Source: an uncultured delta proteobacterium (GTDB taxonomy: Bacteria; Myxococcota; Myxococcia; Myxococcales; Myxococcaceae). From it: a stretch of 64,000 nt of DNA. The notes under the pieces were generated by a model. That model was given only the letters and a program-made list of their open reading frames with translations, had not been told where the DNA came from and searched no databases. Positions 9,888 through 29,751 of the stretch are shown one piece after another (the first letter of the stretch is position 1; each line of letters begins with the position of its first letter). The DNA is taken from the NCBI GenBank assembly GCA_963796055.1, contig CAWCKH010000005.1:160001-224000 (forward strand), written 5' to 3'. Made by a program: the position numbers and the translations under genes.

Positions 9888-9940
9888 GGAACGACACGCG
9901 CGCCCCGGGGGAAGTCCGCAACGGAACGTGAGGCGGCCCC

Positions 9941-9955
9941 TGGCAGATGGCTTGC
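9941..9955 (+). promoter_or_regulatory. sigma-54 -24/-12 promoter
   Basis: TGGCAGATGGCTTGC (GG-N10-GC with TTGC). Confidence 0.8.
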
Positions 9956-9975
9956 CTGTCGGATTGCTCTTCCCC

Positions 9976-11400
9976 GTGAGCACCCGTCTCGTCGAATACA
10001 GCCTGGAGGAGCGGCTGGAGGCCTGCCGCCGGCTCGCCGCCGAGAGCCTGGACAGCCCGCGGCGCTTCTGGCTCCGCGAGGCCGGACTCCTGGACTGGGT
10101 GCGTTCTCCGGAGGAGGCCTTCGTGGGGGAGATGAAGCACGGGGACGTGAGCTGGTTCTCCGGCGGCCTGCTCAACGCGGCCTGGAATGCGGTGGACCGC
10201 CACGCGGTCGCCTCCCCCGAGCGGACGGCGCTGGTGTGGGCCCGGCCCGAGGGTGACGTGGTGTCCTGGACCTTCCGCGAGCTGCGCCAGGCCTCCTCGC
10301 GGATGGCCCAGGTGCTCCTCTCCCAGGGCGTGCGGTGGGGCGACCGGGTGGTCGGTCACCTGCCCGAGACGCCGACCCTGGCGATGCTCCACCTCGGCTG
10401 CGCCCGCATCGGGGCGGTCCCGGTGGCGGTGCCGGTCCGGTCGGGGGCGGCGCTCGGCCGGGTGCTGCGTGCCACCCGGGGCAGGGTCCTGGTCACGGCC
10501 GACGAGGCGCCCCTGCCCGATGGACGGCTTCCGCTGTGGGAGCGGGTGGAGGACCTCCTCGGCGGCCTGGGGCGGGTGGAATCGGTCCTGGTCGAGCGGC
10601 GCACCGGCACTCCGGTGAGCCTGGTGTACGGGCGGGACCAGGAGCTGGGGACCGCGCTGGCCCGTGCCCGGCCGACCTGCTCGCTTCGCCCCTGCGACGG
10701 CGAGGACCCGCTGCTGCTCGTGCCGGGCCTCGAGGAGGGCCCGCCGGTGGTGCACGGGCTGGCGGGCTTCCTGCTCTGTGCCGCGCTCGGGCTCCGCGAG
10801 GCGGCGGGAGTCGGCCCGGGGGCCCAGGTGCTCTGCACCGAGGGGTTCTCCGGTTCACGCATCGACGTGCTCTGGGGGACGTGGGTGCTCGGCGGCGCCC
10901 TGGTGTTCGACGAGCGGGGAGATGGCGCTCAACGCCCCCGGGCGCTCGGCGTCACCCACCTCTTCGGGCCGCGGGGAGCGCTGGCGGCGGCGGGGCCGGG
11001 CGTGCTCGGGGCCTCGCTGGACGGCTCGGACGCCTCGGTGGCGCCGGTCTGGACGCCCGAGGGCGGGGGGATGCTGGCCGCGCGCTTCGGAGACCTCGGC
11101 GGCACGGCGCTCTTCGGGGTGGACCCCGTCCTGGTGGACACGGTGGGCCGCCGTGCGGGCGGGGCCGGAGCCGAGGGAGAGCTGTGCGTGAAGCGCTCCT
11201 GGCCTGCCCAGCCCCGCAGCCTCGAGCAGGACCACGCCGGGTACGTCGCCCAGCGGCTGGAGCGCTACCCCGGGCTCTACCGGACGTTGGTGCGATGCCG
11301 GCAGCTCCCCGACGGAGCGCTCGCTGCCATCGCGACTCCGCTCGGCGGCATGACCCCCAGCAACGTCTATCCCATCGAAGGCCCCATCGGACGCGCGTGA
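9976..11400 (+). CDS. Degenerate, C-terminally truncated acetyl-CoA synthetase-like protein (probable pseudoenzyme)
   Basis: Acs N-terminus is recognisable (FW..EA..LDW, WF.GG.LN..WNAVDRH, GDRV, CARIGAV). The P-loop YTSGxTGxPKG is replaced by VPGLEEGPP, and there is no GRxDD hinge or C-terminal domain. Start uncertain (GTG 9976). Confidence 0.75.
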   Translation: MSTRLVEYSLEERLEACRRLAAESLDSPRRFWLREAGLLDWVRSPEEAFVGEMKHGDVSWFSGGLLNAAWNAVDRHAVASPERTALVWARPEGDVVSWTFRELRQASSRMAQVLLSQGVRWGDRVVGHLPETPTLAMLHLGCARIGAVPVAVPVRSGAALGRVLRATRGRVLVTADEAPLPDGRLPLWERVEDLLGGLGRVESVLVERRTGTPVSLVYGRDQELGTALARARPTCSLRPCDGEDPLLLVPGLEEGPPVVHGLAGFLLCAALGLREAAGVGPGAQVLCTEGFSGSRIDVLWGTWVLGGALVFDERGDGAQRPRALGVTHLFGPRGALAAAGPGVLGASLDGSDASVAPVWTPEGGGMLAARFGDLGGTALFGVDPVLVDTVGRRAGGAGAEGELCVKRSWPAQPRSLEQDHAGYVAQRLERYPGLYRTLVRCRQLPDGALAAIATPLGGMTPSNVYPIEGPIGRA

Positions 11401-11428
11401 GGCGTGTTTCGCCGGCTCCGGCTTCCGG

Positions 11429-11466
11429 TGTTACCGAGGGCAACAAGGGGCGTTACGTTTTGTAGC
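11429..11466 (+). promoter_or_regulatory. Tandem putative enhancer sites
   Basis: TGTTAC-CGAGG-GCAACA and CGTTAC-GTTTT-GTAGC, 22 bp apart. Confidence 0.7.
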
Positions 11467-11588: not shown

Positions 11589-11879
11589 ATGGCCGAGCTC
11601 ACCGAAGCGCAGAGGCACGAGTACTGGAATTACAACATCCGTCTCACCGTCATCCTCCTCATCATCTGGGCCTTCTTCGGGTTCATCCTCGGCGGGGTGC
11701 TCGCCGGCGAGCTGAACAACATCGTCATCGGGGGCTTCCCGCTCGGCTACTACATCGCCGCCCAGGGTTCGCTGGCGGTCTTCGTGATCGAGATCGCCGT
11801 CTACGCCCGGCTGATGAACAAGAAGGACCGCGAGTACGGACTCGAAGACTCCACCACCCCCGGCCCGAGGGTCGCGTGA
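11589..11879 (+). CDS. DUF4212 small subunit of a sodium:solute symporter
   Basis: YW..N..L...LL.IW and GFPLGYY.AAQGS..VF motifs. GGAGAAGGGA RBS before ATG 11589. Confidence 0.88.
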   Translation: MAELTEAQRHEYWNYNIRLTVILLIIWAFFGFILGGVLAGELNNIVIGGFPLGYYIAAQGSLAVFVIEIAVYARLMNKKDREYGLEDSTTPGPRVA

Positions 11880-13807
11880 TGACCACCGCCATCGCCCCCA
11901 CGCGCAAGTGGACGCTGAACAAGATCTTCGGGCTCTACACGGTCGCCTTCCTCGGAATGACGATCCTCATCGGCCTGGCCGAGAAGTTCCTCGGCCTGCC
12001 CAACCGGTGGATCGGCTGGCTCTTCATGGCACTGAGCATGGGGATCTACGTGCTGATCGGGATCCTCACCCGGACCACGGACTCGGACCAGTACTACGTG
12101 GCCGGGCGCGGGGTGCCTGCGATCTACAACGGGATGGCCACCGGGTCGGACTGGATGTCCGCCGCCTCGTTCATCTCCATGGCCGGAGCGCTCTCGGTGC
12201 AGGGCTTCAGCGGGCTCGCCTACGTGATGGGGTGGACCGGGGGGTACGTGCTGCTGGCAGTCTTCCTCGGCCCCTACCTCCGCCAGTTCGGCGCCTACAC
12301 CATTCCCGACTTCCTCGGAGCACGGTACGGCGGAAACACGGCCCGGTTGGTGGGCGTGCTCGCCGCGATTCTCTGCTCCTTCACCTACCTCATCGCCCAG
12401 GTCACCGGGGTCGGCCTGATCGTCAGCCGCTTCCTGGGGCTGCCGTTCAACGTCGGGGTCTTCGCGGGTCTCATCGGAGTGCTCTTCTGCTCGGTGCTGG
12501 GGGGGATGCGTTCGATCACCTGGACCCAGGTGGCTCAGTACATCATCCTCATCATCAGCTACCTGGTTCCGGTGGTGGTGCTGAGCTGGCAGCTCTTCAG
12601 CTTCCCGCTCCCCCAGTTCACCTACGGGCAGCTGCTGCAGCGAAACAGCGCGTCGGCGATCAAGGTGACCAACGACCCGGCCGAAGCGGCCACCCGCGCG
12701 GCCTGGAAGAAGGAAGCCGACGAGGCCGCCGCCAAGCTCAAGCAGCCGGCTCTCTCCGAGGCCGAGAGGGACAAGCTGACCGCCACGCAGAAGACGGGGG
12801 CGGCGCAGGCCAAGCCGCCCGCCGCGCCGGGGGCGACCATCGCCAACTACCTCACCGTGCCCAAGGGCGTGGGGATGTGGAACTTCCTGGCCCTCACCTT
12901 CTGCCTGATGGTGGGCACCGCAGGGCTGCCGCACATCTTGACCCGGTACTACACCACGCCCTCGGTGAGGGAAGCGCGAACCTCGGTGGGCTGGGGCCTG
13001 TTCTTCATCTTCCTCCTCTACTTTACCGCCCCGGCCTACGCCGCATTCGCCCGGTTCGTGGTCTACAGCCGGCTGGTCGGCACGCAGATCTCCGACCTCC
13101 CGCGCTGGGTGGCCTTGTGGAAACCCGCCGGCCTCTTCGACGTGGTGGACAAGATCGGCGACGGGGTGGTGCAGCTGGCGGACTTCGTCATCAAGAGCTC
13201 CGACTTCGTGGTGCTGGCGATGCCGGAGATGGCCGGGCTGCCGTTCGTGATCACCGGCCTGGTGATGGCCGGGGGCCTGGCCGCCGCGCTCTCCACCGCG
13301 GACGGCCTCCTGCTGACCATCGCCAACGCGATCTCCCATGACATGTACTACAAGGTGATCAATCCCAAGGCCCCGCTGATCGTCCGGCTCACGGTGACCA
13401 AGATTCTCCTGGTCGCGACCGCACTCATCGCCGCGGGCGTGGCCACCTTCCGTCTGGCAATCATCGTCGAGCTGGTGGCCTGGGCCTTCAGCCTCGCGGC
13501 GTCGTCCTTCTTCCCGGCACTGGTCATGGGCATCTGGTGGAAGCGGGCGAATCGACCGGGAGCGGTGGCCGGGATGCTGGTCGGCCTCGGCCTCACCCTC
13601 ATCTACATGACCGGCTCGCGCTTCTTCGGAATGTCCTGGTTCGGGACCGCCACCGTGGCCTCGGGGGTGTTCGGGATCCCCCTCGGCTTCCTCACCATCT
13701 ACGTGGTCTCGCTCCTCACAGCCGCGCCGCCCCAGCGGGTCCAGGAACTGGTGGCCGACGTGCGCTATCCCAAGGCCACCATCTCCTCGACGGAGTACGC
13801 CCACTAG
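11879..13807 (+). CDS. actP: Sodium:solute symporter, VC_2705/ActP-like (monocarboxylate/acetate permease)
   Basis: YYVAGR, NGMATGSDWMSAASF, GWTGGY, GGMRSITWTQVAQY, GTAGLPHIL and AAALSTADGLL. Confidence 0.88.
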   Translation: MTTAIAPTRKWTLNKIFGLYTVAFLGMTILIGLAEKFLGLPNRWIGWLFMALSMGIYVLIGILTRTTDSDQYYVAGRGVPAIYNGMATGSDWMSAASFISMAGALSVQGFSGLAYVMGWTGGYVLLAVFLGPYLRQFGAYTIPDFLGARYGGNTARLVGVLAAILCSFTYLIAQVTGVGLIVSRFLGLPFNVGVFAGLIGVLFCSVLGGMRSITWTQVAQYIILIISYLVPVVVLSWQLFSFPLPQFTYGQLLQRNSASAIKVTNDPAEAATRAAWKKEADEAAAKLKQPALSEAERDKLTATQKTGAAQAKPPAAPGATIANYLTVPKGVGMWNFLALTFCLMVGTAGLPHILTRYYTTPSVREARTSVGWGLFFIFLLYFTAPAYAAFARFVVYSRLVGTQISDLPRWVALWKPAGLFDVVDKIGDGVVQLADFVIKSSDFVVLAMPEMAGLPFVITGLVMAGGLAAALSTADGLLLTIANAISHDMYYKVINPKAPLIVRLTVTKILLVATALIAAGVATFRLAIIVELVAWAFSLAASSFFPALVMGIWWKRANRPGAVAGMLVGLGLTLIYMTGSRFFGMSWFGTATVASGVFGIPLGFLTIYVVSLLTAAPPQRVQELVADVRYPKATISSTEYAH

Positions 13808-13907
13808 AGGAGAACCCCGCTGACCTCCCAGGGGCCCGGGGGTCCTCGCCCGACGGCAACGGGCGCGGTCCTCCCCGGGCCTCGCCCGCTGTTGGAGGCG
13901 TTCGCCG

Positions 13908-14195
13908 ATGGCATTGCTCCCCGGCGTGCTGCTCATTCTCCGCACGGTGAGCTTCATCGCCGTCTGCTACGTGGGCCTGTACATCGCCGCGACGGGGTTG
14001 GTCCGGAATCCTCAGAGCAAGGTGCTGGCGTTCTTCGCCCTGGTTGCCGCGCCCATTCTCCGTCCCGCCCGGGCGCTGGCCGGAACTGGGGCGTCCGAGC
14101 GGCGGGTGCGGTGGGTGGCCTTCGCCCTGGTGGTCGGGGTGTGGGCGGTGGCGGTTGCGCTCGACCTCAACTTCGGAGCACGACCCCCCCGCTGA
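13908..14195 (+). CDS. Small membrane protein (YggT-like)
   Basis: 95 aa, hydrophobic helices, FF.LV..PILRP.R pattern, GGAGG RBS. Confidence 0.55.
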   Translation: MALLPGVLLILRTVSFIAVCYVGLYIAATGLVRNPQSKVLAFFALVAAPILRPARALAGTGASERRVRWVAFALVVGVWAVAVALDLNFGARPPR

Positions 14196-14239
14196 CCCGC
14201 GGGAGGTCAGGGCTGCGCGCGGCGGAGCCCGTCCTGCGC

Positions 14240-14490
14240 CAGGAGCAGGTGCTCCAAGGCGTCCATCCCCGAGCGCCGTATCGCCAGTGGACGTTGTCGC
14301 TGCCGATGCCAGTGCGCTTCTGTCTGGCCTCTTCGTCCAGGCGCTCTTCGGCTTCCAGCGCCGTACGGCCCGGGCGGCTGGGGTTGCCCGGCCGCTCAGC
14401 GGCGCCGTCGCCTTCGTCCAGCGCTTGGGCTCGGCGCTCCAGCTGACGCCCACTTCCACGTCCCCGTCCCAGAGGCCGTCTTCGAGGGGG
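14240..14490 (+). pseudogene. IS91-family (Y2/HUH) transposase remnant
   Basis: Frameshifted pieces PYRQWTLSLP..VRF / FQRR...SGAVAFVQRLGSALQLTP / HFH, homologous to 62570-62840. Confidence 0.75.
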
Positions 14491-14623
14491 TGCACTCCGA
14501 GGAGATGCGCCTGCACCCGCCGCGTCGGGCCATGGAACCCTCCGCTCCCTCGTCTCTCAGGCGGGTGGACGCGAGGATGCGGGAGGGGACTACGATGCGC
14601 CTCGCGATGGAGGGAGCGGCCAC

Positions 14624-14881
14624 TTGAAGCGGACCAACGTCAGGAACGAACGCCTGGTCGCCCTGGCCTTGTTCGGTCTGCTCCTCTTCAACTACCCACT
14701 CCTCCAGATGTTCAACGCGCCCACGCTGGTCCTGGGGTTCCCGAAGCTCTATCTGTACCTCTTCGTCGCCTGGGCGGTGCTGATCTCGGGAGCCGCCCTG
14801 ATCCTCCGGGTGAGCGAATCCGACGGGGGAGACCTCCCCGGCGGGCGGGGACGGGCGCGACGGCCGCCGTCGCTACGCTGA
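14624..14881 (+). CDS. Small membrane protein preceding an SLC5-fused kinase
   Basis: RLVAL..FG.LLFNYPLL..F and G.P.LY.YLF..W pattern. TTG start with GGAG RBS. Confidence 0.7.
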   Translation: MKRTNVRNERLVALALFGLLLFNYPLLQMFNAPTLVLGFPKLYLYLFVAWAVLISGAALILRVSESDGGDLPGGRGRARRPPSLR

Positions 14882-14890
14882 GGCGCACAC

Positions 14891-17713
14891 GTGCTCCGGG
14901 ACTGGGTCGTCATCTCCGTCGCCTGCGCCTACCTGGGGCTCCTCTTCGCGATCGCCTACTACGGTGACCGGCGCGCCGACCGCGGGCGGAGCCTCATCGC
15001 GAACCCGTACATCTACTCGCTGTCGCTCGCGGTCTACGCGACCGCGTGGACTTTCTACGGCTCGGTCGGGCGCGCCGTCTCCACCGGCATCGGGTTCCTG
15101 CCCATCTACATCGGCCCGACGCTCATGTGCCTTCTGTGGTGGATCCTGCTGCGGAAGATCATCCTCATCAGCAAGGTCCACCGGATCACGTCGCTGGCGG
15201 ACTTCATCGCTTCCCGGTACGGCAAGAGCGCCCTCGTCGCGGGGCTCGTCACCGTCATCGCGGTGATCGGGATTCTCCCCTACATCTCGCTCCAGCTGAA
15301 GGCGATCTCCACCGCTTTCACGATCGTCCACTCGCACGACGTGGCGGTCGTCGGCGCGGGCCACGGCGGGCCGTTCCTCGGCGACACCGCGCTGTACGCG
15401 GCGCTCATCCTCGCCGCCTTCACCATCATTTTCGGGACCCGCCACCTCGACGCCTCGGAGCGACACGAGGGGATGGTCGCGGCGATCGCCTTCGAGTCGC
15501 TGGTGAAGCTCGTCGCCTTCCTGGCGGTGGGCGCGTTCGTGACCTGGGGCATGTTCGACGGGTTCCGGGACGTCTTCACGCGCTCCCGCGAGCTACCCGG
15601 GGTCGAGGCGCTCTTCGTCATCGGGGGAACGGGCGACGGGCACACGGGCATCCTGGCCTCCCTCTACTCCGCGACCTTCTTCGCCATGCTCGCGATCCTG
15701 TTCCTGCCCCGGCAGTTCCAGGTCGCGGTGGTCGAGAACGTCGACGTCGACCACGTGAAGACCGCGATCTGGCTGTTCCCGCTCTACTTGCTGGTCATCA
15801 ACTTCTTCGTGCCGGCGATCGCCTTCGGGGGGATGCTCCACTTCGCCGGCACTCCGGTCGATCCGGACACGTACGTGCTCACCCTGCCGCTCTCCAGGGG
15901 CCAGAACGGGCTCGGGCTGCTCGTCTTCATCGGAGGGCTCTCCGCGGCGACCGGAATGGTGATCGTCGAGACGATCGCGCTCTCCACCATGGTCTGCAAC
16001 GACCTCGCCATGCCGCTGCTGCTGCGCTGGCGCGCGCTGCGGCTGAACCAGCGGCCGGATCTCACCGGACTCCTGCTGGGCATCCGGCGCGGGGCGATCC
16101 TGGTGATGCTGCTCCTCGGCTACCTCTACTTCCGGATAGCGGGGGAGGCCTACGCGCTGGTGTCGATCGGCCTCATCTCCTTCGCCGCGGTGGCGCAGTT
16201 CGCACCCGCCTGCCTGGGCGGGCTCTTCTGGAAGGGCGGTACGCGCGCCGGCGCCCTCGCCGGCCTCTCCGCCGGATTCCTGGTCTGGCTCTACACCCTC
16301 CTCGTCCCGGCGTTCGCGAAGTCGGGCTGGGTGCCCATGTCCATCGTCGAGGCGGGGCCGTTCGGGGTGGAGGCCCTGAGGCCCCTGCAGCTCTTCGGGC
16401 TCACCGGCCTCGACCAGATCACCCACGGGATGATCTGGTCCATGCTGGCCAACGTGGGGGCCTACATCGGGTTCTCGCTGTCGACCACCCAGAGCGCGGT
16501 CGAGCACAGCCAGGCGACGCTGTTCGTGGACGTGTTCAAGCACTCCGCCGCCGGCACCGGGTCGCTCTTCTGGCGGGGCGGCGTGTCGGTCCAGGAGCTG
16601 CGCGCGCTCCTCTCGCGCTTCCTCGGGGCGGACAAGGCCGACGAGGTGCTGGAGGGCTACGCGCGCGATCGTCGCCTGCTGTCGGCGTGGGAGGTCGACG
16701 CCGACGCGAACCTCATCCAGTTCGCCGAGACGAAGCTGGCCGGCGCCATCGGCGGAGCGTCGGCCCACGCGATGGTGGCGTCGGTCGTGAAGGAGGCCCC
16801 GCTCACCATGGACGAGGTGATGTCCATCCTCGACGAGGCCTCGCAGATCATGAAGTACAGCCGGGAGCTGGAGAAGACGTCGCGGGAGCTCACCAGCGCG
16901 TACGCGGAGCTCAGGAGCGCAAACGAGCAGCTGAAGGAGCTGGACAGGATGAAGGACGACTTCGTCTCCCACGTCTCGCACGAGCTCCGCACCCCTCTCA
17001 CCTCCATCCGCTCGGCCTCCGAGATTCTCCACGACCATCCCGAGCTCGATGCCGCCACCCGCACCAAGTACCTGTCGGTCGTCATCCAGGAGGCGGAGCG
17101 GCTCACCCGCCTGATCAACCAGGTCCTCGACCTCTCGAAGATCGAGGCCGGCCGGGTCGAGTGGCGGATCGGGGAGGTGAGCCCGCGCGAGGTGGTCGAG
17201 CACGCCGTGGCGGCGACGAGCCAGCTCTTCGCCCAGAAGGCGGCGACGCTGGAGGTCGACGTGCCGGTGGAGGCCCCGCGGATCCTCGCCGATCGGGACC
17301 GCCTCGTGCAGGTGGTGATCAACCTCCTCTCGAACGCGGCCAAGTTCTGCGCCGACCCGGGCGGCCGGGTCTCCATCTCGCTGCGCGCGGAGCCGGGGGC
17401 GGTCCGCGTCGACGTGCGTGACAACGGGATGGGGATCGCGGCGAAGGACCAGGAGCTCATCTTCGAGAAGTTCCGCCAGGGGGGCGACACCCTCACCACC
17501 AAGCCGAGGGGAACCGGCCTGGGGCTCCCGATCAGCCGCGAGATCATCCACCACTTCGGGGGGCGCCTCTGGGTGGAGAGCGAGCCCGGGAGAGGAGCCA
17601 CCTTCTCGTTCGTCATCCCGCTCCGCCGTCAGCCGGAGGTGGGCGGTGGCGACGTGCGGGACGCTCGCGCCGCTGCGCTCGGCGCGTCCGGGACGGAGGC
17701 CGGTGCCAGCTGA
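14891..17713 (+). CDS. SLC5/SSF-STAC histidine kinase (CrbS/MxtR/PrlS-related; no PAS or REC)
   Basis: YSLSLAVYATAWTFYGSVG, ITSLADFIASRYGK, LPRQFQVAVVEN, STAC (E.KLAGAIGGASA), SHELRTPLTSI, NLLSNA and GTGLGL. Confidence 0.9.
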   Translation: MLRDWVVISVACAYLGLLFAIAYYGDRRADRGRSLIANPYIYSLSLAVYATAWTFYGSVGRAVSTGIGFLPIYIGPTLMCLLWWILLRKIILISKVHRITSLADFIASRYGKSALVAGLVTVIAVIGILPYISLQLKAISTAFTIVHSHDVAVVGAGHGGPFLGDTALYAALILAAFTIIFGTRHLDASERHEGMVAAIAFESLVKLVAFLAVGAFVTWGMFDGFRDVFTRSRELPGVEALFVIGGTGDGHTGILASLYSATFFAMLAILFLPRQFQVAVVENVDVDHVKTAIWLFPLYLLVINFFVPAIAFGGMLHFAGTPVDPDTYVLTLPLSRGQNGLGLLVFIGGLSAATGMVIVETIALSTMVCNDLAMPLLLRWRALRLNQRPDLTGLLLGIRRGAILVMLLLGYLYFRIAGEAYALVSIGLISFAAVAQFAPACLGGLFWKGGTRAGALAGLSAGFLVWLYTLLVPAFAKSGWVPMSIVEAGPFGVEALRPLQLFGLTGLDQITHGMIWSMLANVGAYIGFSLSTTQSAVEHSQATLFVDVFKHSAAGTGSLFWRGGVSVQELRALLSRFLGADKADEVLEGYARDRRLLSAWEVDADANLIQFAETKLAGAIGGASAHAMVASVVKEAPLTMDEVMSILDEASQIMKYSRELEKTSRELTSAYAELRSANEQLKELDRMKDDFVSHVSHELRTPLTSIRSASEILHDHPELDAATRTKYLSVVIQEAERLTRLINQVLDLSKIEAGRVEWRIGEVSPREVVEHAVAATSQLFAQKAATLEVDVPVEAPRILADRDRLVQVVINLLSNAAKFCADPGGRVSISLRAEPGAVRVDVRDNGMGIAAKDQELIFEKFRQGGDTLTTKPRGTGLGLPISREIIHHFGGRLWVESEPGRGATFSFVIPLRRQPEVGGGDVRDARAAALGASGTEAGAS

Positions 17714-17724
17714 ACGGAGCCAGC

Positions 17725-18096
17725 ATGAAGAAGAGAGTCCTGATCGCCGACGACGAGCCGAACATCGTCATGTCACTCCAGTTCCTCATGGAGTTCGAGG
17801 GGTACGAGGTGCGGACCGCGGCCGACGGGGAGACGGCCCTCCAGATCCTCCGCGACTTCCGTCCCGACCTGGTCCTGCTCGATGTGATGATGCCAAAGCG
17901 AAACGGCTACGAGATCTGCCAGGCCGTGCGCGAGACGCCCGCCCTGGCGGGCATCAAGGTGGTGATGCTGACCGCGAAGGGGCGTGACATCGACGCCGAG
18001 AAGGGCCTCGCCCTCGGCGCCGATTCCTACGTCACGAAGCCGTTCGCCACGAAGGAGCTGGTGGCCACGGTGAAGGCGTTGCTCGGCGACGCGTGA
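17725..18096 (+). CDS. Stand-alone response regulator receiver
   Basis: IADDE, LLDVMMP, MLTA and YVTKPF motifs; no output domain. Confidence 0.9.
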   Translation: MKKRVLIADDEPNIVMSLQFLMEFEGYEVRTAADGETALQILRDFRPDLVLLDVMMPKRNGYEICQAVRETPALAGIKVVMLTAKGRDIDAEKGLALGADSYVTKPFATKELVATVKALLGDA

Positions 18097-20288
18097 TGGC
18101 GAGGCTCGCCAAGGCCAGGTTCGCGCTCGTCCTCGTGGGCTCCCAGGCCCTGGCGATCGTCGCGGCCGCGCTGGTCTGCGCAGGGGTGTGGGCCGCGCTC
18201 GGGCCCGACGAGCGTTCCGCCCTCGCCGCCGGCGTGGCGGAGCGGGCCCCGCTGCTCGTCGGTCTCGGGATCGGCCTGCTCGCCGGCCACTGGCTCCTGG
18301 TGTGGGTCCTCGTCCAGCAGCACGTGGCCGCCCCCCTCGCGCTCGCGCAGGGGACCCGCCTCGTCACCCACGGGAACGCCTCCCACCGGCTCGAGCCACT
18401 CGGCGGAGCGGAGCTCCGTGAGCTGGCGGACGCGATCAACGCGCTCGCCGGCGAGCGCGAGACGCTCCGCGGCGAGTTCGAGGCGAGGGTGGCGGAGGCG
18501 CAGCAGCGGCTGGGGGAGGAGCGCGATCGGCTCGCCGCGATCGTCGCCGAGTCGTCGCAAGCGGTGCTCGTCTGCAACCTCGAGGGGCGTATCCTCCTCT
18601 ACAACATGAAGGCGCGGGAGCTCCAGGGCAGGGCGACCGACGGGACGTCGCCGGACGGCGGAGCCGGCCTGGTGGGGCTGGCGCGGTCGGTGTTCGTGAT
18701 CCTCGAGCGGGCCCTGGTCGCCCACGCCCTGGAGACGATCCAGGCACGCCTGGAGAAGGGGACACAACATCCCGTGGCGAGCTTCGTCACCGCCGGCGGC
18801 GATCGGCTCCTGCGCGTCCACGTCTCACCCGTCCTGCGCGGCGGGCGCGCGACGCAGGACGCGGACGACCCCGCCCCGCGCGGCGCCGGGACGAGCGCCA
18901 TCACCGGGTTCGTTCTCCGCATCGACGACGTCACCCGGCAGCTCCAGGCGGGGAGCCGCACCGAGGCCGCCCTTCAGGCGCTCACCGACGCGAGCCGGCG
19001 CGCGCTCGCCAACATCCGCGCGGCGGTGGAGACGCTCCTCGCCCACCCGGGCCTGGAGGCCGAGCGGCGGGCCGGGTTCGTCGGGGTCATCCACGACGAG
19101 GCGTCGGCCCTCTCGGCCACCCTCGACCGCGCCGCACCCGAGCTCACCTCGCTACGGGCCGAGTTGCTCCTCGAGAACATGCAGGGAGCCGACCTCCTCT
19201 CGGCGGCGCGCTCGCGCATCGAGGGCATTCTCGGCCTGTCCACGACCCTCGACGAGATCGATCCCGGGCTCTGGCTCAAGGTGGAGAGCTACTCCCTGGT
19301 GCGGGCCGTCACCTCGATCGGGAGCCGGCTCCAGCGCCGGGGCGTCCGGGAGCTGCGGCTGGCGCTCGGGCGGGCCGGCCCGCGGGCGCACCTCGACGTC
19401 ACCTGGTCCGGCGCCGACGTGCCGACCGAGGTCCTCGCTCGCTGGGAGGACGAACCCCCCGACGTCGACGGGGAGCCCATGCCGCCCACGCTCAGAGCGG
19501 TGGTCGAGCGCCACGACGGAGCGGTCTGGTCCCAGGGGGACCGTCCCTCCGCGCCCGGATTCATCCGGCTGGTCCTCCCGGTGGCGGAGGCGGAGCAGGC
19601 GCCGCTCGCCTCCCCCCTCACGCGCGGCCGGCCCGAGTTCTACGATTTCGACCTGTTCCACCAGGCGGGGCAGACCCCGGAGCTGGACGAGCGGAAGCTC
19701 ACGGCGCTCGAGTACACCGCCTTCGACACCGAGACCACCGGGCTCTCCCCCTCCGGCGGCGACGAGATCATCTCCATCGGCGCGGTGCGCATCGTGAACG
19801 GGCGGCTGCTCCACCAGGAGGCCTTCGAGCAGTTCGTGGACCCCGGGAGGCCGGTGTCGCCGGAGACGGTCCGGATCACCGGCATCGATCCTGCGCTCCT
19901 CCGGGGCAAGCCGCCGATTGGGGAGGTCCTCCCCCGGTTCCATCGCTTCTGCGAGGGCACCGTGCTCGTCGCGCACAACGGCGCCTTCGACCTGCGCTTC
20001 CTCCAGCTGAAGGAAGAAGTGGCCGGGGTCCGCTTCACGCACCCGGTGCTCGACACCCTGCTCCTCGCCGAGCTGATCCAGCCGGACCTCCCCCCCACCG
20101 GGCTCGAGGGCATCGCCGAACGGTTCGCCGTTCCCGTGCTCGGGCGGCACACCGCGCTCGGCGATGCGATCATGACCGGCGAGATCTTCCTCAGGATGGT
20201 CCCCCTGCTGAGGGCGCGGGGCATCGAGACGCTCCGCGAGGCCAGGGAGGCGTCGCAGCGGACCTGGGCCGCACGCCTGGAGTACTGA
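18093..20288 (+). CDS. Membrane-anchored HAMP/PAS/pseudo-histidine-kinase fused to a DEDDh 3'-5' exonuclease domain
   Basis: Two TM segments, HAMP (ELRELADAINAL), PAS (V.VCNLEGRILLYN) and a kinase-like region lacking the H-box His. C-terminal FDTETTGL, HNGAFD and HTALGDA. Confidence 0.85.
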   Translation: MMARLAKARFALVLVGSQALAIVAAALVCAGVWAALGPDERSALAAGVAERAPLLVGLGIGLLAGHWLLVWVLVQQHVAAPLALAQGTRLVTHGNASHRLEPLGGAELRELADAINALAGERETLRGEFEARVAEAQQRLGEERDRLAAIVAESSQAVLVCNLEGRILLYNMKARELQGRATDGTSPDGGAGLVGLARSVFVILERALVAHALETIQARLEKGTQHPVASFVTAGGDRLLRVHVSPVLRGGRATQDADDPAPRGAGTSAITGFVLRIDDVTRQLQAGSRTEAALQALTDASRRALANIRAAVETLLAHPGLEAERRAGFVGVIHDEASALSATLDRAAPELTSLRAELLLENMQGADLLSAARSRIEGILGLSTTLDEIDPGLWLKVESYSLVRAVTSIGSRLQRRGVRELRLALGRAGPRAHLDVTWSGADVPTEVLARWEDEPPDVDGEPMPPTLRAVVERHDGAVWSQGDRPSAPGFIRLVLPVAEAEQAPLASPLTRGRPEFYDFDLFHQAGQTPELDERKLTALEYTAFDTETTGLSPSGGDEIISIGAVRIVNGRLLHQEAFEQFVDPGRPVSPETVRITGIDPALLRGKPPIGEVLPRFHRFCEGTVLVAHNGAFDLRFLQLKEEVAGVRFTHPVLDTLLLAELIQPDLPPTGLEGIAERFAVPVLGRHTALGDAIMTGEIFLRMVPLLRARGIETLREAREASQRTWAARLEY

Positions 20289-20308
20289 GTCTCTCGAGCG
20301 ACGGCAGC

Positions 20309-21772
20309 TCACCAGGAGAGCTGGGTGCGGAACCGGTCGGCCAGTCCCCGCTGGAACCAGCGAATGGTCCGGAAGGCCTGGCGGAGGGCGGCGCGGTCGA
20401 TGGCGTCGAGGCGGGAAGGGTCGACCTGGGTCGAGGGAGGCCGGACTTCCATGGCCGCGCCCAGCTCGGTATCGAGGCGGGCCCGGAGCAGCGTCTCCAG
20501 GGCGTGAGTCAGGTCGCGGCCCTCCTCCGCGCCCAGGGCCCCGGCGTCCACCGCGCGGGCGACACGGGCGGAGGTGCCGGTGTCCTTCATGCCAAGCTGC
20601 ACCGCGTAGGCCCGCATCCCGTGCACCAGAGGGAAGAGCCCCAGCGCCTTGACGTCGAAGCGCCCCCGATGGGGGCCATGGCGGGCAACCCGGAAACGGC
20701 CGAAGAGCCCCAGAGGCGGATCCCGCCGCAGGGCTTCGCGCGCCAGACGCTGGTGGAAGGGCGCGTACCGGGGAGCCTGCGTGCACGCCCAGGTCCACAC
20801 TTCGCTCGCCACCGCCTCGTCACCGGCGACGAACCGCCAGTCGAAGAACACGCTCGCCTCGACCAGGGCATCGTCCTCCGGACGTTCCATCCACTCGAGA
20901 AATCGCTCCTTCCACCGCCCGACGTCGAGGCGCCACCGGGGGTTGGTCGCCATGAAATTCCCGGGACAGTGGGGAACGCCAAGTGCCGCCAGTCTCTGGG
21001 CGATGCCCTCGGCCAGTCGAGTGAAGTACTCCCTGGCCGGGCCGTCGTCCGCGCCGAGGGCGTACACCAGCCCGTTGTCCTGGTCGGTGACCATGGTCTG
21101 CTCGCGGCGGCCTTCGCTGCCTCCCACCACCAGGGCATACGGCACCGGCGGTCGTCCGTGCCCCTCGGCAGCCAGCGCTTGCTCGGCAAGCTGCGTCACC
21201 CGGCGCAGGGTCCGGCTGTGGACCTCGGCGACGAGCTCGGTCACCTCGATGGCCGGGAGGCCGGCGCGGACCAGGCCCCGAACCAGCGGAGGGAGCCGCG
21301 ACTCGGCGGCGCGAATCCCGTCCAGGGAGGCCGCGGCGTCCACCGCCTGGGTGAGCGAGGCCGGATGCCCCGCTTCGAGCGGAACGAAGTCGTCGGTGAA
21401 GAGCACGCCGATCAGCTGACCGTCCCCGTCAACCACCGCCAGGTGGTGGAGCGCCGTGCGAGTCATCTCCCGGAGCGCGGTGAAGGCCCAGTCCTCGCCG
21501 CGCACCGTTTTCACCGGGGCGGACATGATCCCCGAGACCGGTCCCGAGGGTGGATACCCGCCGGCGACGACCTTGGAGCGAAGGTCCCGGTCGGTGACGA
21601 TCCCGATCGGGGTTCCTTTGTTCGCGACCACCGCCGCGCCGGTGTGTCGCTCGGTCATCGCCCTGGCCACGGCCGCCACGGCCTCGGTCGGGGCTGCGGT
21701 CACCAGCGGGCGACTCAGCAGCTCGCGGGTCCGGAGGCGGTGCAGCCAAGTCTGCAGGCGAGCGTCGGGCAT
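20309..21772 (-). CDS. CBS-CBS-DUF294 putative nucleotidyltransferase (copy 1)
   Basis: GIVTDRDLR CBS pair, GSEGRREQT..TDQDNGL Pol-beta-type NTase motif, CPGNFMA.NP.W, FFDWR and FDVK. Confidence 0.9.
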   Translation of the reverse strand: MPDARLQTWLHRLRTRELLSRPLVTAAPTEAVAAVARAMTERHTGAAVVANKGTPIGIVTDRDLRSKVVAGGYPPSGPVSGIMSAPVKTVRGEDWAFTALREMTRTALHHLAVVDGDGQLIGVLFTDDFVPLEAGHPASLTQAVDAAASLDGIRAAESRLPPLVRGLVRAGLPAIEVTELVAEVHSRTLRRVTQLAEQALAAEGHGRPPVPYALVVGGSEGRREQTMVTDQDNGLVYALGADDGPAREYFTRLAEGIAQRLAALGVPHCPGNFMATNPRWRLDVGRWKERFLEWMERPEDDALVEASVFFDWRFVAGDEAVASEVWTWACTQAPRYAPFHQRLAREALRRDPPLGLFGRFRVARHGPHRGRFDVKALGLFPLVHGMRAYAVQLGMKDTGTSARVARAVDAGALGAEEGRDLTHALETLLRARLDTELGAAMEVRPPSTQVDPSRLDAIDRAALRQAFRTIRWFQRGLADRFRTQLSW

Positions 21773-21904
21773 CCTCGGGAGCGCGCGGTTGGGCCGAGCA
21801 GGTTTTCAGATTCCTCCCACTCCCGCCATCCGGTGGCAGGGGTTGAACCCATCGGAGGCGCCTCTGGGGTGGCCCCGACCTCGGAATCTCTTGAGGATGG
21901 CATT

Positions 21905-23371
21905 TCAGGAGAGCTGGGTGCGGAACCGGTCGGCCAGTCCCTGCTGGAACAGGCGAATCGTCCGGAATGCCTCGCGGAGGGCGGCCCGATCGATGGCGTC
22001 GAGACGGGAGGGGTCGACCTGGCTCGAGGGAGGATGTCCTTCCATCGTCGCGCCCAGCTCTGCATCGAGGCGCGTGTGGAGCAGCGTTTCCAGAGCGTGA
22101 CTCAGGTTGCGGCCCTCCCCCGAGGGCAGGGCCCCCGCCTCCACCGCGCCGGCGATGCGGGCTGAGGTCCCGGTGTCCTTCAGACCGAGCTGCACCGCGT
22201 AGGTCCTCATCCCGTGCACCAGGGGGAAGAGCCCCAGCGCCTTGACGTCGAAGCACCCCCGATGCGGGCCGCGGTGGGCCACCCGGAAGCGGCCGAAGAG
22301 CCCGAGCGGCGGATCCCGGCGCAAGGCTTCGCGTGCCAGGCCCTGGTGGAAGGGCGCGTACCGGGGAGCCTGCCCGCAGGCCCAGGTCCACACCTCGCTT
22401 GCCACCGCCGCGTCGCCGGCGACGAACCGCCAGTCGAAGAACACGCTCGCCTCGACCAGGGCGTCGCCCTCCGGCCGTTCCATCCACTCCAGAAAGCGCT
22501 CCTTCCAACGCCCGACGTCGAGGCGCCACCGGGGGTTGACCGCCATGAAATTTCCGGGACACGGGGGAACGCCCAGCGCCGCGAGCCTCTGGGCGATGCC
22601 CTCGGCCAGTCGGGTGAAGTACTCGCCGGCCGCGCCTGCGACATCCTCGGCGACGGGGGTGTAGACCAGCCCGTTGTCCTGATCGGTGACCATGGTCTGC
22701 TCCCGCCGACCCTCGCTGCCCCCCACCACCAGGGCATACGGCACCGGTGGTCGTCCGTGCCCCTCGCTGGCCAGGCCCTCCTCGGCAAGCTGAACCACCC
22801 GCCGAAGTGTCCGGTCGTGGACCTCGGCCACCAGCTGCGTCACCTCGATGGCTGGGAGGCCTCCGCGGATGAGCCCCCGCACCATCCCGGGGAGGCGGGC
22901 TGCCGCAACCCGGAGCGCATCCGGCGAGGTCGCGGCGTCCACCTCCTTCACCACCGAGGCCGGATGCCCCCTCTCGAGTGCGAGGAAGTCATTGCTGGAG
23001 ATGACCCCGAGGAGCTCGCCTTCCCCATCGACCACTCCCAGGTGATGGATGGCCGAGCGGGTCATCTCCCGGAGCGCGATGAAGGCCCAGTCCTCGGCGC
23101 GAACGGTCTTCAGCGGCGCGGACATGATTCCCGACACCGGCCCCGAGGGAGGGTAGCCGCCAGCGACAACCTTGGAGCGAAGGTCGCGATCGGTCACGAT
23201 TCCCACCGGCGTCCGGCCGGTGGCGATCACCGCCGAGCCGATGCGGCGCTCGCTCATCGCTCGGGCGACGGCAGCGACGGCTTCGGTCGGCGCGGTGAGG
23301 AACGGGGGCCGGGTCACCAGCTCCCTGGCCCGCAGGCGGTGCAGCCCGGTTTCGAGGCGAGCGTCCGGCAT
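21905..23371 (-). CDS. CBS-CBS-DUF294 putative nucleotidyltransferase (copy 2)
   Basis: Same motifs as copy 1. ATG 23371 aligns with the copy-1 start (MPDARL). Confidence 0.9.
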   Translation of the reverse strand: MPDARLETGLHRLRARELVTRPPFLTAPTEAVAAVARAMSERRIGSAVIATGRTPVGIVTDRDLRSKVVAGGYPPSGPVSGIMSAPLKTVRAEDWAFIALREMTRSAIHHLGVVDGEGELLGVISSNDFLALERGHPASVVKEVDAATSPDALRVAAARLPGMVRGLIRGGLPAIEVTQLVAEVHDRTLRRVVQLAEEGLASEGHGRPPVPYALVVGGSEGRREQTMVTDQDNGLVYTPVAEDVAGAAGEYFTRLAEGIAQRLAALGVPPCPGNFMAVNPRWRLDVGRWKERFLEWMERPEGDALVEASVFFDWRFVAGDAAVASEVWTWACGQAPRYAPFHQGLAREALRRDPPLGLFGRFRVAHRGPHRGCFDVKALGLFPLVHGMRTYAVQLGLKDTGTSARIAGAVEAGALPSGEGRNLSHALETLLHTRLDAELGATMEGHPPSSQVDPSRLDAIDRAALREAFRTIRLFQQGLADRFRTQLS

Positions 23372-24796: not shown

Positions 24797-24870
24797 CGGA
24801 CTCGGCGAGCGGGGGACCCATCCACCGAGAGCGCCTCCTGCAGCCGAGTTGCAGTGAGACTGCGCCTCTG

Positions 24871-24896
24871 TGTTACCGAAGGTAACGGACTGTTAC
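24871..24896 (+). promoter_or_regulatory. Putative enhancer sites
   Basis: TGTTAC-CGAAG-GTAACG plus a TGTTAC half-site 20 bp downstream. Confidence 0.75.
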
Positions 24897-24957
24897 CGAT
24901 CGGGGCAGACCGAGCCACCTGGTGACGCTCTGCCAACGGATTACGAGGCGTGCAACT

Positions 24958-24972
24958 TGGCTTGAAAGTTGC
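24958..24972 (+). promoter_or_regulatory. sigma-54 -24/-12 promoter
   Basis: TGGCTTGAAAGTTGC. Confidence 0.8.
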
Positions 24973-25016
24973 GGTCTGCGGAAGTTGCCCACCCGTCTTC
25001 TGAAGGAGGCAGACCG

Positions 25017-26651
25017 ATGGCCGTCGCCGCGTCGTCCCTGCCCATGATCGACAAGAGCGAAGAGCGTCGCGTCATCTTCGCGTCGAGCCTGGGTACCGTC
25101 TTCGAGTGGTACGACTTCTACATCTACGCCGTGCTGGCGCCCTTCTTCGCCAGCGTGTTCTTCCCCCCGGGGAACCAGACGACGGCCCTCCTCAATGCTT
25201 TCGTGAACTACGCGGCAGGCTTCCTGGTCCGCCCGTTCGGGGCGCTGTTCTTCGGCCGGATCGGCGACCTGGTCGGCCGCAAGTACACCTTCCTCGTCAC
25301 CATCACGGTCATGGGTCTGTCCACGGCGCTGGTCGGCTTTCTCCCCACCTACTCCTCGGTCGGCATGCTCGCGCCGCTGCTGCTGCTCCTGCTCCGGCTG
25401 GCGCAGGGCCTGGCGCTGGGCGGTGAGTACGGCGGTGCGGCCACCTACGTGGCCGAGCACGCCCCGGAGAACAAGCGTGGCGGCCACACCGCCTGGATCC
25501 AGACCACCGCCACGGTGGGTCTGCTGCTGGCGCTGGTGGTGATCCTGGCGTGCCGCAGCGGGATGACCACCGCGGACTTCGCGAGCTGGGGCTGGCGCAT
25601 TCCGTTCATCCTCTCGATCATCCTCCTGGTCATCTCCATCTACATCCGGCTCAAGCTGAACGAATCGCCGATGTTCCGGCGGATGAAGGAAGAGGGCAAG
25701 GGAAGCAAGGCCCCGCTGTCCGAGAGCTTCGGGCAGTGGAGCAACCTCAAGATCGTGATCCTCGCCCTCCTCGGCGCGACTGCCGGACAGGGCGTGGTCT
25801 GGTACACCGGCCAGTTCTATGCGCTGTTCTTCCTCCAGACGACGCTGAAGGTCCCGTTCGAGACGGTGTACATGCTCATCGCCATCTCGCTGATCATCGG
25901 CACCCCGTTCTTCCTCGTCTTCGGCCGGCTCTCGGACCGGATCGGCCGCAAGTGGATCATGATGGCCGGGTGCCTGCTCGGCGTGCTCACCTACTTCCCG
26001 CTCTTCAAGGGGCTGACCCACTACGCCAACCCGGCGCTGGAGGCGTTCAACGCCAGCAACAAGATCACGCTGACCGCCACCAACTGCCAGACGCACATCT
26101 TCGCCCTGCCCACCACCAAGTACAGCGAGTGTGATCGCGTCCGGAACATCCTCGGCTCGAGGAGCGTGAACTACGACAACATCGAAGGCGCTCCAGGCTC
26201 CATGCCGGTGGTGCGGATCAACGACAAGGAGATCAGCTCTCCGGCCTCGATGGACGCGGCCGGGATCAAGGCCTTCGAAGGGCAGATCACCGGTGCCCTC
26301 ACTGCCTCAGGCTATCCGGCGAAGTTCGACCCGGCGGGCCTGAACTGGCCGATGGTGCTTCTCATCCTGCTGATCATGGTGATCTACGTCACCATGGTGT
26401 ACGGCCCCATCGCCGCGTTCCTGGTGGAGCTGTTCCCCACCCGGATCCGGTACACGTCGATGTCGCTGCCGTACCACATCGGCAACGGATGGTTCGGCGG
26501 CATGCTCCCTCTCACCGCGTCGGCCCTGGTGGCGGCGAACGGGGACATCTACTTCGGCCTCTGGTACCCGATCATCGTCGCGGCGATGACCTTCGTGATC
26601 GGCTCGCTCATGATCAAGGAGACCAAGGACCACAAGATCGGCGTGGTGTAG
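25017..26651 (+). CDS. MFS metabolite:H+ symporter (MHS family)
   Basis: ASSLGTVFEWYDF, RPFGA..FG.IGD.VGRK, QGLALGGEYGGA, WGWRIPF and ELFPTRIRY. GAAGGAGG RBS. Confidence 0.93.
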   Translation: MAVAASSLPMIDKSEERRVIFASSLGTVFEWYDFYIYAVLAPFFASVFFPPGNQTTALLNAFVNYAAGFLVRPFGALFFGRIGDLVGRKYTFLVTITVMGLSTALVGFLPTYSSVGMLAPLLLLLLRLAQGLALGGEYGGAATYVAEHAPENKRGGHTAWIQTTATVGLLLALVVILACRSGMTTADFASWGWRIPFILSIILLVISIYIRLKLNESPMFRRMKEEGKGSKAPLSESFGQWSNLKIVILALLGATAGQGVVWYTGQFYALFFLQTTLKVPFETVYMLIAISLIIGTPFFLVFGRLSDRIGRKWIMMAGCLLGVLTYFPLFKGLTHYANPALEAFNASNKITLTATNCQTHIFALPTTKYSECDRVRNILGSRSVNYDNIEGAPGSMPVVRINDKEISSPASMDAAGIKAFEGQITGALTASGYPAKFDPAGLNWPMVLLILLIMVIYVTMVYGPIAAFLVELFPTRIRYTSMSLPYHIGNGWFGGMLPLTASALVAANGDIYFGLWYPIIVAAMTFVIGSLMIKETKDHKIGVV

Positions 26652-26690
26652 CGCCCGTTCCCTTCGAGTCCGGGGATCCGTCCCCGACCG

Positions 26691-26744
26691 CCGGCCGGCC
26701 CCGTCCCTCCCCCCCGGGACACGGGTGCCGGCCGGGTTTTTTTT
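26691..26744 (+). terminator. Intrinsic terminator
   Basis: GC-rich stem (ccggccggc...gccggccgg) followed by a T8 run, between convergent genes. Confidence 0.75.
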
Positions 26745-28254: not shown

Positions 28255-28397
28255 CGTGGAGGCCCTCACCCTGGAATTGGAGCGGCGGAGTCTGGGCCGT
28301 CCGGGAGGGTCTCCGGAAGCGACAAGTGGGTCAAAGAAGGGCGGTGAACGGCCGGGCGCGCCCGCGGGCCAGGGGAATTCCCGATGCAAGAACAGGA

Positions 28398-28431
28398 CGG
28401 CGGGCGCCCTCGAACCCGAGGACGCCCGCCG
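28398..28431 (-). terminator. Hairpin, probable terminator of the porin gene
   Basis: CGGCGGGCG...CGCCCGCCG stem followed by TCCTGTTCTT on the minus strand. Confidence 0.45.
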
Positions 28432-28461
28432 CGCACGGTCCCCAGAGAGTGGAGCCCGGGG

Positions 28462-29649: not shown

Positions 29650-29736
29650 TCGTCCCCTCTCCACGTGAATGCTGCCCCAGGGCACACGATGACCTAGCGC
29701 CAGTCGGCGACCAACTTTTTTTTGGCCCCGCTGTAG

Positions 29737-29751
29737 GCAATCCACGTTCCA
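29737..29751 (-). promoter_or_regulatory. sigma-54 -24/-12 promoter of the porin gene
   Basis: Minus strand TGGAACGTGGATTGC. Confidence 0.75.

Follow-up and report, generated by a model that had tools for sequence, protein, structure and literature searches.

The locus described here raises the question of what a membrane-bound exonuclease might do next to a transporter-like histidine kinase, a lone receiver and two putative nucleotidyltransferases. It lies in a 64,000-nucleotide stretch of DNA (the window) from an uncultured Myxococcaceae bacterium (assembly GCA_963796055.1, contig CAWCKH010000005.1, positions 160,001 to 224,000), whose genome of 5.5 Mb is 98.5% complete. All six open reading frames (ORFs) listed in a first-pass annotation of the letters, together with the strands and catalytic motifs named there, were found in place. 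The exonuclease had been described as a transmembrane-HAMP-PAS-nuclease protein; its membrane and nuclease parts stand, while a dead kinase core of ~ 210 residues between PAS and DEDDh had been left out. Judged from alignments and profile searches, this fusion of a dead kinase core to a live nuclease is a real and widespread signalling architecture that has been mis-annotated. The cassette comprises the following parts:

14624..14881, + strand: small two-helix membrane protein of 85 aa, by position and topology apparently a CbrX-like subunit of the sensor kinase (transmembrane helices at residues 11-29 and 42-60)
14891..17713, + strand: SLC5-STAC histidine kinase with all catalytic boxes preserved, lacking PAS and receiver (Pfam HisKA and HATPase_c)
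17725..18096, + strand: single-domain receiver with intact Asp53 and Lys105 and without output domain; its stop overlaps the exonuclease start
18093..20288, + strand: exonuclease of 731 aa, in the order two transmembrane helices, HAMP, PAS, pseudokinase, linker, DEDDh
18945..19583, + strand: dead histidine-kinase core (DHp hairpin and degenerate ATP-binding fold), residues ~ 285-497 of the exonuclease
19629..19658, + strand: linker motif RPE[FY]YDFDLF, exonuclease residues 513-522, directly ahead of the nuclease domain
20309..21772, - strand: CBS-CBS-DUF294-DUF294_C nucleotidyltransferase, distal copy, without a cyclic nucleotide (cNMP) domain (Pfam, model, fold match)
21905..23371, - strand: CBS-CBS-DUF294-DUF294_C nucleotidyltransferase, proximal copy (ATG at 23371; Pfam)

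The exonuclease begins with two transmembrane helices (residues 10-28 and 56-74), followed by a HAMP domain that falls below the Pfam cut-off (expectation value, E, 4e-4) and a PAS-like region that has no Pfam match and is recognized through a profile match to the WalK PAS chain 4mn5 (E 4e-4). The nuclease domain (Pfam RNase_T, E 2e-32) carries all five DEDDh residues, D545, E547, D633, H686 and D691, each of which is invariant in two alignments of homologues (115/115 and 81/81). The larger alignment consists of the window exonuclease and 114 of the best 120 of 317 matches, six short or partial sequences being left out; the closest named homologue is 93% identical and labelled Myxococcaceae. 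The protein ends in a conserved helix and a terminal tyrosine (YARLxY-type; 20268-20288), a feature that neither the stand-alone nor the fused partner nucleases showed.

Residues ~ 285-497 gave no useful Pfam match. Here the family profile matched VicK 4i5s (E 1.6e-14) and also ThkA and HK853, and in the predicted structure of the region a helical hairpin leads into an alpha/beta sandwich. In Foldseek, WalK, VicK and LOV-kinases came out on top, with DivL 4q20 among the matches listed. The model has a mean predicted local distance difference test score (pLDDT) of 80 and a predicted template modelling score of 0.49, so that the placement of the domains is uncertain. The phospho-histidine position of the core is occupied by Glu in 81, Asp in 22 and Gln in 12 of the 115 sequences and never by His (Asp299 in the window exonuclease); His is also missing there from all 81 sequences of the second alignment. 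The N and G boxes are absent, and the phosphatase positions H+1 and H+4, counted from the histidine position, are lost. Because of these losses, we regard the core as incapable of kinase activity and probably as no phosphatase either.

The origin of the core can be traced within the genome. Of 45 genomic kinase DHp segments, that of the SLC5 kinase in the same operon is the closest (score 63, against 37 for the next) and shares 15 identities with the core, whereas the other segments share at most 11. Likewise, a hidden Markov model of the dead core finds the operon kinase with E 7.7e-13 and the next kinase with E 0.011. By these measures the core is an inactivated duplicate of the transmitter of its cognate kinase, encoded two genes upstream. 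A direct BLAST of exonuclease against kinase returned nothing, the paralogy being visible by profiles only. In the linker that follows the core, R513, P514 and D518 are invariant (115/115) and Y517 is nearly so (114/115), in a segment modelled at low confidence. The linker motif was not seen in 13 stand-alone partner nucleases, and Tyr517 was set aside for this reason as a universal target of tagging.

The SLC5 kinase has retained what the core has lost: its H-box His697 and its N, G1 and G2 boxes are all intact, and the phospho-His is kept in 57/57 kinases of related loci. Its residues 8-477 match PDB 10ed_A (E 4e-68), a chain that, from its size and type of sequence, appears to be a CbrA construct; the Pfam SSF model did not match this kinase. 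LGADKA at residue 578 fits the LGxxxA motif of STAC domains (PMC4834066), as a motif match only. The kinase is 35% identical to the second SLC5 kinase of the window. The profile of the small membrane protein matched no PDB chain; its position and two-helix topology fit CbrX, which is described as binding the SLC5 domain of CbrA (PMC13022988). In the receiver, Asp53 and Lys105 are invariant (65/65 aligned sequences), and the tail beyond KPF measures 14-22 residues in 64/66, with no output domain. The operon holds no DNA-binding regulator, the neighbouring regulator being the lone receiver, which bears out the earlier statement that this kinase lacks a DNA-binding output; cross-talk to a regulator encoded elsewhere is possible. 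CbrX-CbrA/CbrB, CrbS/CrbR and RpuS/RpuR, which act via transcription factors, likewise have an SLC5-STAC kinase preceded by a small helical-hairpin gene, in a context of carboxylate transport (PMC13022988, PMC9100948, PMC4834066). The window kinase differs from CbrA, CrbS and RpuS in having neither PAS nor fused receiver, with a lone receiver alongside instead.

A route from this relay to the nuclease is offered by the face of the dead core. Its least variable positions are H+3 Arg, H+12 Ala and H+7 Ala/Gly (each 115/115), H+11 Ala (113) and H+29 Arg (107), and these lie on the outward, receiver-docking face of the pseudo-DHp hairpin rather than in the dimer core. In Caulobacter crescentus DivL, residues R553, T557, G561, Y562 and H579 form the DivK~P site at matching offsets, those after the loop being approximate (PMC4211667). 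DivL resembles the window core as a membrane PAS-DHp-CA protein without phospho-His and with an Arg at H+3, and it is proposed to read a phosphorylated single-domain receiver via the canonical docking face (PMC4211667). It differs in signalling via its PAS domains to CckA and in retaining an ATP-binding domain that can be reactivated (PMC4211667), whereas the window core lacks the ATP boxes, is paralogous to the cognate kinase and carries a C-terminally fused enzyme.

When the receiver was modelled together with residues 281-530 in two copies, a complex was weakly supported (0.49, against 0.00 for the best of three controls), with at least 96% of contacts shared between runs and a partner pLDDT of at least 85. 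On calibration, the mark was reached by 116/157 solved and 2/215 mismatched pairs, and passes at or below 0.60 comprised 18 of the 157 solved pairs and both passing mismatches. Since kinase-receiver complexes have already been solved, the pass may reflect likeness to them. Phosphorelay control, as supposed in the first-pass annotation, gains a candidate physical route through a pseudokinase core unseen at the time, with binding of the receiver weakly predicted.

To place the cassette in a wider context, 80 loci from GTDB genomes carrying the exonuclease fusion were selected out of 471 relatives, themselves found in a set of 600 candidates; kin within this set are not independent. Their titles name Beta-, Gamma- and Alphaproteobacteria, Chloroflexi and Desulfobacterales, and within the window's own class the fusion occurs in 7/251 genomes. 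Neighbours of the fusion include a receiver in 66 loci, DUF294 in 63, the SLC5 kinase in 58, the small protein in 52, a VC_2705 symporter in 44, an acetyl-CoA synthetase (Acs) in 20 and DUF4212 in 18. Where at least 4 kb of upstream sequence is available (63 loci), the receiver is found in 59, the kinase in 54 and the small protein in 51, and the receiver gene directly precedes the exonuclease in 59. DUF294 is present in 34 of the 42 loci with 6.5 kb on both sides. As this arrangement recurs around 80/80 fetched loci, the gene order is not chance. The head-on layout noted earlier holds at the window locus and does not extend to a rule, with DUF294 co-oriented with the fusion in 51/63 loci and opposite in 12.

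What, then, do the DUF294 proteins contribute? The two window copies, ~ 81% identical to each other, both carry the nucleotidyltransferase motif GSEGRREQTMVTDQDN. It is kept in 76/77 homologues, the sole miss being a truncated ORF, and K375 and R387 are invariant (77/77). Cys269, within a CxGxxMA motif, is conserved in 76/77 (window genes at 20309-23371). The structural model, for which 73 sequences were aligned and five awkward ORFs of 72 left out, reached a pLDDT of 94. It matched GlnE 1v4a (Z 26.9, root-mean-square deviation, rmsd, 3.3, 327 residues aligned), GlnE 3k7d (Z 26.8, rmsd 2.9, 307 aligned) and DrrA 6yx5 (Z 25.7, rmsd 3.9, 301 aligned), far above the remaining fold matches and at an identity of 10-16%. 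Motif, helical C-terminal domain and fold agree with the kinship of DUF294 to GlnD/GlnE nucleotidyltransferases that is stated in the first-pass annotation. Enzymes of the GlnE/DrrA type put adenosine monophosphate (AMP) onto protein tyrosines or take it off.

Compared by sequence with the PDB, the catalytic part of DUF294 gave spurious matches only, and all 60 matches listed for the DUF294 profile are CBS domains. Neither cGAS/DncV-like, CCA-adding nor poly(A) polymerase folds appear among the listed top matches, in lists crowded by CBS domains. A cNMP-binding domain found no Pfam match, both proteins beginning at the CBS pair. Each copy is 86-96% identical to its own counterpart in two congeners and 78-82% to the other copy; because counterparts are thus closer across species than the two copies are to each other, the duplication is dated by sequence to before the species split. 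Tandem DUF294 writers are common among the fusion loci, and in twelve of them (L024, L025, L028-L030, L033, L040, L044, L045, L047, L048, L057) a short CBS-less DUF294 of ~ 356 aa with intact motif stands between the fusion and a longer DUF294.

The pairing of DUF294 with a DEDDh nuclease extends beyond the fusion loci. In loci seeded on DUF294, picked from top-scoring matches and with two of the window-class set overlapping, a DEDDh gene lies within ~ 6 kb of DUF294 in 19/20 alphaproteobacterial loci and 16/20 loci of the window's class, and within 1.5 kb in 17/23 and 13/30, respectively. In 4/23 alphaproteobacterial loci, DEDDh, CBS pair and DUF294 form a single reading frame with the five DEDDh residues present, which suggests the layout of a bifunctional writer/eraser. 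These single-chain DEDDh-CBS-CBS-DUF294 proteins (L141, L148, L151, L154) adjoin SSF symporters. A search for long DUF294 fusions, weak as a search, gave two proteins, neither with DEDDh, and an atlas search returned DUF294 clusters only. In a single cluster, a protein of 1235 aa (P0121) has the order PHP-Cache-PAS-CBS-DUF294, with a different phosphoesterase on the same writer. An SSF symporter is found in 17/20 alphaproteobacterial DUF294 loci (one a weak partial match) and in 12/20 of the window's class, in support of the earlier link to a carboxylate-type symporter. No Amt transporter was met among 61/62 membrane ORFs scanned from 40 loci, one over-long frame being left out.

In the window, the symporter and the cassette belong to one larger unit, whose remaining features are:

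11589..11879, + strand: DUF4212 symporter small subunit (Pfam PF13937 and TIGR03647, above cut-off)
11876..13807, + strand: VC_2705-family sodium/solute symporter, the presumed regulated transporter (TIGR03648, 717 bits, cut-off 321)
13908..14195, + strand: three-helix membrane protein of 95 aa and of no known family, within the block; present in L120 and L121
23468..24796, + strand: CitMHS_2 putative citrate transporter, divergent from the DUF294 genes, within the block (Pfam PF16980, E 1e-148)
11428..11437, + strand: left 10-bp direct repeat at the block edge, probably part of a CbrB-like activator site
24870..24879, + strand: right 10-bp direct repeat at the block edge
5218-9785, + strand: CbrA/CbrB-like pair, a second SLC5 kinase with PAS and a sigma-54 activator
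9928-11400, + strand: Acs-like gene, 490 aa, with degenerate P-loop

The fusion and strong DUF294 matches occur together in two of six congeners, and the other four lack both. In 4/4 of the latter, the MFS-gene promoter (24870-24950) follows directly on the end of the Acs-like gene (11403). The 13.4 kb lying between these points in the window comprises the DUF4212 gene, the VC_2705 symporter, the 95-aa protein, the four-gene cassette, both DUF294 genes and CitMHS_2. From these alignments, the block is read as having been gained or lost as one unit, flanked by the 10-bp direct repeat. Congener G019 is 95-96% identical to the window over 14483-21772, compared with 83-88% in the flanks and the symporter, which suggests that the signalling core and the distal DUF294 were recently exchanged across species.

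The 10-bp repeat is part of a near-palindrome found at 9863, 11430, 24872 and 29826 (0.11 expected, with a pattern derived from the same sites), positions that precede the Acs-like, symporter, MFS and porin genes. Within the near-palindrome are TGTTAC/GTAAC half-sites that resemble the TGTTAC/GTAACA subsites of CbrB (PMC6296734). The sigma-54 promoter pattern did not rise above chance in the sequence searched (19 found, 16.6 expected). Transcription of the symporter is likely run by the upstream CbrA/CbrB-like pair, and the operon kinase would thereby be free for a non-transcriptional role. The pair occurs here outside Pseudomonas; one publication calls CbrAB exclusive to pseudomonads.

Relatives of the enzyme pair have been studied genetically. 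PP_0354/PP_0353 of Pseudomonas putida KT2440 and Pflu5625, whose likeness was judged by domain make-up, also combine a CBS-nucleotidyltransferase and an RNase T-like nuclease with an SSF carboxylate symporter. In Pseudomonas, the nuclease is a separate protein and a DNA-binding regulator governs transcription of the pair (MxtR/ErdR = CrbS/CrbR), whereas the window nuclease is membrane-anchored on a dead kinase core and has its own kinase and lone receiver; the window transferases, unlike PP_0354/Pflu5625, lack a cNMP domain and are duplicated. PP_0353/PP_0354 are MxtR/ErdR targets, and deletion of the nuclease PP_0353 impairs growth on pyruvate in the manner of actP-I or yjcH loss, while deletion of PP_0354 has little effect (PMC9927547; bioRxiv 10.64898/2026.09.07.749794). 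Loss of the writer that goes unnoticed, together with loss of the eraser that mimics loss of the transporter, suggests the pattern expected of an inhibitory tag. Modification of protein by the transferase has already been proposed for relatives (PMC5715377; bioRxiv 10.64898/2026.09.07.749794). Elsewhere, DUF4212 is cofit with a nearby RNase T-domain gene, for which an effect on expression was speculated (Price et al., 10.1101/072470). In eight Bacillales, amtB shares an operon with DUF294 and dnaQ (PMC3412718, Table 1), and six of these, with a single amtB, list no glnK as that table reads. Since no Amt was found among the scanned neighbours, the amtB link comes from this table only. No description of a pseudokinase-nuclease fusion or of DUF294 activity was found in the open literature, subscription papers not being covered; the enzyme pair is thus known genetically, and the pseudokinase wiring was not found in that literature.

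Taken together, we tentatively propose that a reversible nucleotide tag is placed on the symporter and that its removal is gated by the phosphorelay. The SLC5 kinase would sense a solute at the membrane and phosphorylate the lone receiver, both proteins having their catalytic residues intact. The receiver would dock in DivL fashion onto the dead core and alter how active the fused nuclease is. The CBS-DUF294 enzymes, whose activity adenine nucleotides likely tune via the CBS domains, would attach a nucleoside monophosphate to a protein tyrosine and thereby shut uptake; the membrane-tethered DEDDh domain would hydrolyse the phosphodiester and restore it. Transcription of the symporter would be left to the CbrA/CbrB-like pair. 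The parts of this scheme differ in strength. The writer/eraser relation of DUF294 and DEDDh, already put forward in the first-pass annotation, is probable in view of adjacency, fusion in relatives, the GlnE/DrrA fold and the published knock-out pattern. The signal, the docking of the receiver and its sign are somewhat favoured, and a protein target at the transporter falls just short of an even chance. GlnE, GlnD/PII and DrrA offer a parallel in their two-domain fold with a Pol-beta-type motif and in the coupling of writer to eraser, fused in some relatives. GlnD/GlnE erasers are HD or second transferase domains, whereas here the eraser would be a DEDDh domain, with CBS input on the writer.

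Several observations weigh against this scheme. To our knowledge, there is no precedent for a DEDDh protein de-nucleotidylase, the known DEDDh enzymes acting on nucleic acids. The adenylyl-removing domain of GlnE ties with the adding domain as best fold for DUF294. Among 55 neighbouring symporters, no exposed tyrosine could be singled out as specific to the family; Y74, Y171 and Y382 are near-invariant there and may be structural. A symporter is present in only 23/42 fusion loci with 6.5 kb on both sides, and the cassette is modular: the order small protein, kinase, receiver, CBS/DUF294 occurs without the exonuclease fusion at L125, L126, L127, L129 and L133, and the fusion occurs without DUF294 in the fetched stretch at L122-124. 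The pseudo-DHp departs from the kinase at docking sites (H+7 T to A/G, H+8 S to N, H+12 F/L to A). It shows no locus-specific covariation, with 12.61 identities to the kinase of its own locus and 12.60 to others, in a test of low power given that pseudo-DHp and kinase DHp are both very conserved. Finally, growth on propionate is reported to be reduced by deletion of PP_0353 and PP_0354 and not by deletion of actP-I (bioRxiv 10.64898/2026.09.07.749794). Because the actP-I deletion has no propionate defect, a simple on/off switch of ActP does not explain these data.

The propionate phenotype of both Pseudomonas mutants, being independent of ActP, would suit the tagging of another protein, such as acetyl-CoA synthetase, the sensor kinase or the Tyr517 of the fusion's linker. 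Acs stands in 20/80 loci and Tyr517 in an invariant linker of low model confidence; Acs is far less constant than a symporter, the stand-alone partner nucleases lack the linker motif, and the amtB operons (PMC3412718) point to transporters as the common factor, all of which makes such a target improbable. Control at the RNA level, in which the nuclease would trim 3' ends of transporter mRNA, small RNA or tRNA and the transferase would extend or protect them, thereby setting transporter expression post-transcriptionally, would require no new chemistry, since 3'-5' trimming of nucleic acids is the established DEDDh reaction. The best structural relatives of the nuclease domain are PolC, DnaQ, DinG, ExoX and RNase T domains, and both genetic papers speculate along such lines. 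This reading appears unlikely, as DUF294 folds like the protein-modifying GlnE/DrrA, the top folds listed, though crowded by CBS domains, include neither a CCA-adding enzyme nor a poly(A) polymerase, and Pfam finds no RNA-binding domain in exonuclease or DUF294. The small-nucleotide branch of the original interpretation, with DUF294 making a linear or cyclic messenger that DEDDh degrades and that acts on the transporter or on CBS/cNMP domains, fares worse than its protein branch on grounds of fold. Some DEDDh enzymes do degrade dinucleotides, and the domain has a weak match to 9qrf, 'ancestor of diDNase' (E 0.012). CBS domains bind nucleotides, and P0121 joins DUF294 to a PHP phosphoesterase. 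The listed top matches hold no cGAS/DncV-like fold, the screened neighbours no recurrent gene for a dedicated receptor, and a membrane-tethered eraser would better suit a membrane target than a diffusible one; we consider a messenger quite improbable. The other parts of that interpretation, namely writer/eraser pairing, absence of DNA-binding output and symporter link, have held.

Combinable with any of these targets is a different wiring: the dead core would pair with the SLC5 kinase as a heterodimer or serve it as a scaffold, and the receiver would act on CBS-DUF294 instead of the nuclease. The paralogy of the two cores, the docking residues that set the dead core apart from the kinase and the receiver gene that directly precedes CBS-DUF294 at the five fusion-less loci would all agree with it. 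Nevertheless, the least variable pseudo-DHp positions face outward to the receiver and not into the dimer core, the fusion is adjoined by the receiver more often than by the kinase gene (59 vs 54 of 63), and the complex prediction, weak as it is, exceeds its controls. We therefore rate this wiring as rather unlikely. That the exonuclease is simply the proofreading subunit of DNA polymerase III in an incidental neighbourhood is effectively refuted. Source names do read 'DNA polymerase III subunit epsilon', and no other RNase_T-family gene was found in this genome, which is 98.5% complete; the exonuclease scores 96 bits against a dnaQ_proteo cut-off of 222.7, a separate DnaQ above cut-off is present in 5/5 tested fusion genomes, 4/6 congeners lack the exonuclease, and the protein is membrane-anchored.

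If the proposed tagging of the symporter is true, it would give a function to a very common gene pair, DUF294/COG2905 and the neighbour mis-annotated as 'DNA polymerase III epsilon', and a new reaction to the DEDDh fold. The reading of a receiver by a pseudokinase would gain its second worked example, in this case with direct coupling to an enzyme; carboxylate uptake would be under a post-translational valve, and unexplained published Pseudomonas and Shewanella phenotypes would come down to one epistasis question. The significance of the fusion architecture holds even with a different target. To this the window locus adds the clean indel block that links the module to the symporter, the separate transcriptional pair, a variant that lacks the exonuclease, fusions of DEDDh with DUF294 and the lead to amtB. 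It is doubtful, at this stage, whether the module represents a general and so far unrecognised bacterial system in which reversible protein nucleotidylation gates the transporters for leaky solutes (monocarboxylate symporters, AmtB), with a DnaQ-like de-nucleotidylase, a relay via an inactivated copy of the kinase core and no transcription step.

Two neighbouring regions show features of their own. The Acs-like protein of 490 aa reads LVPGLEEGPP where two intact Acs genes show YTSGSTGKPK, and its C-terminal part is lost. The gene is retained in 5/5 congeners at 83-84% DNA identity. It may be a conserved pseudo-enzyme behind a CbrB-like site, possibly a sensor of acetate or CoA. Beyond the block, 24969-30060 holds an MFS metabolite symporter, a 3-hydroxybutyrate-oligomer-hydrolase-like gene, an ExtI-like porin and a tRNA-Lys(CTT) at 29988-30060. 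The GC content dips to 0.66-0.69 over 24969-30060 and over 12000-18000.

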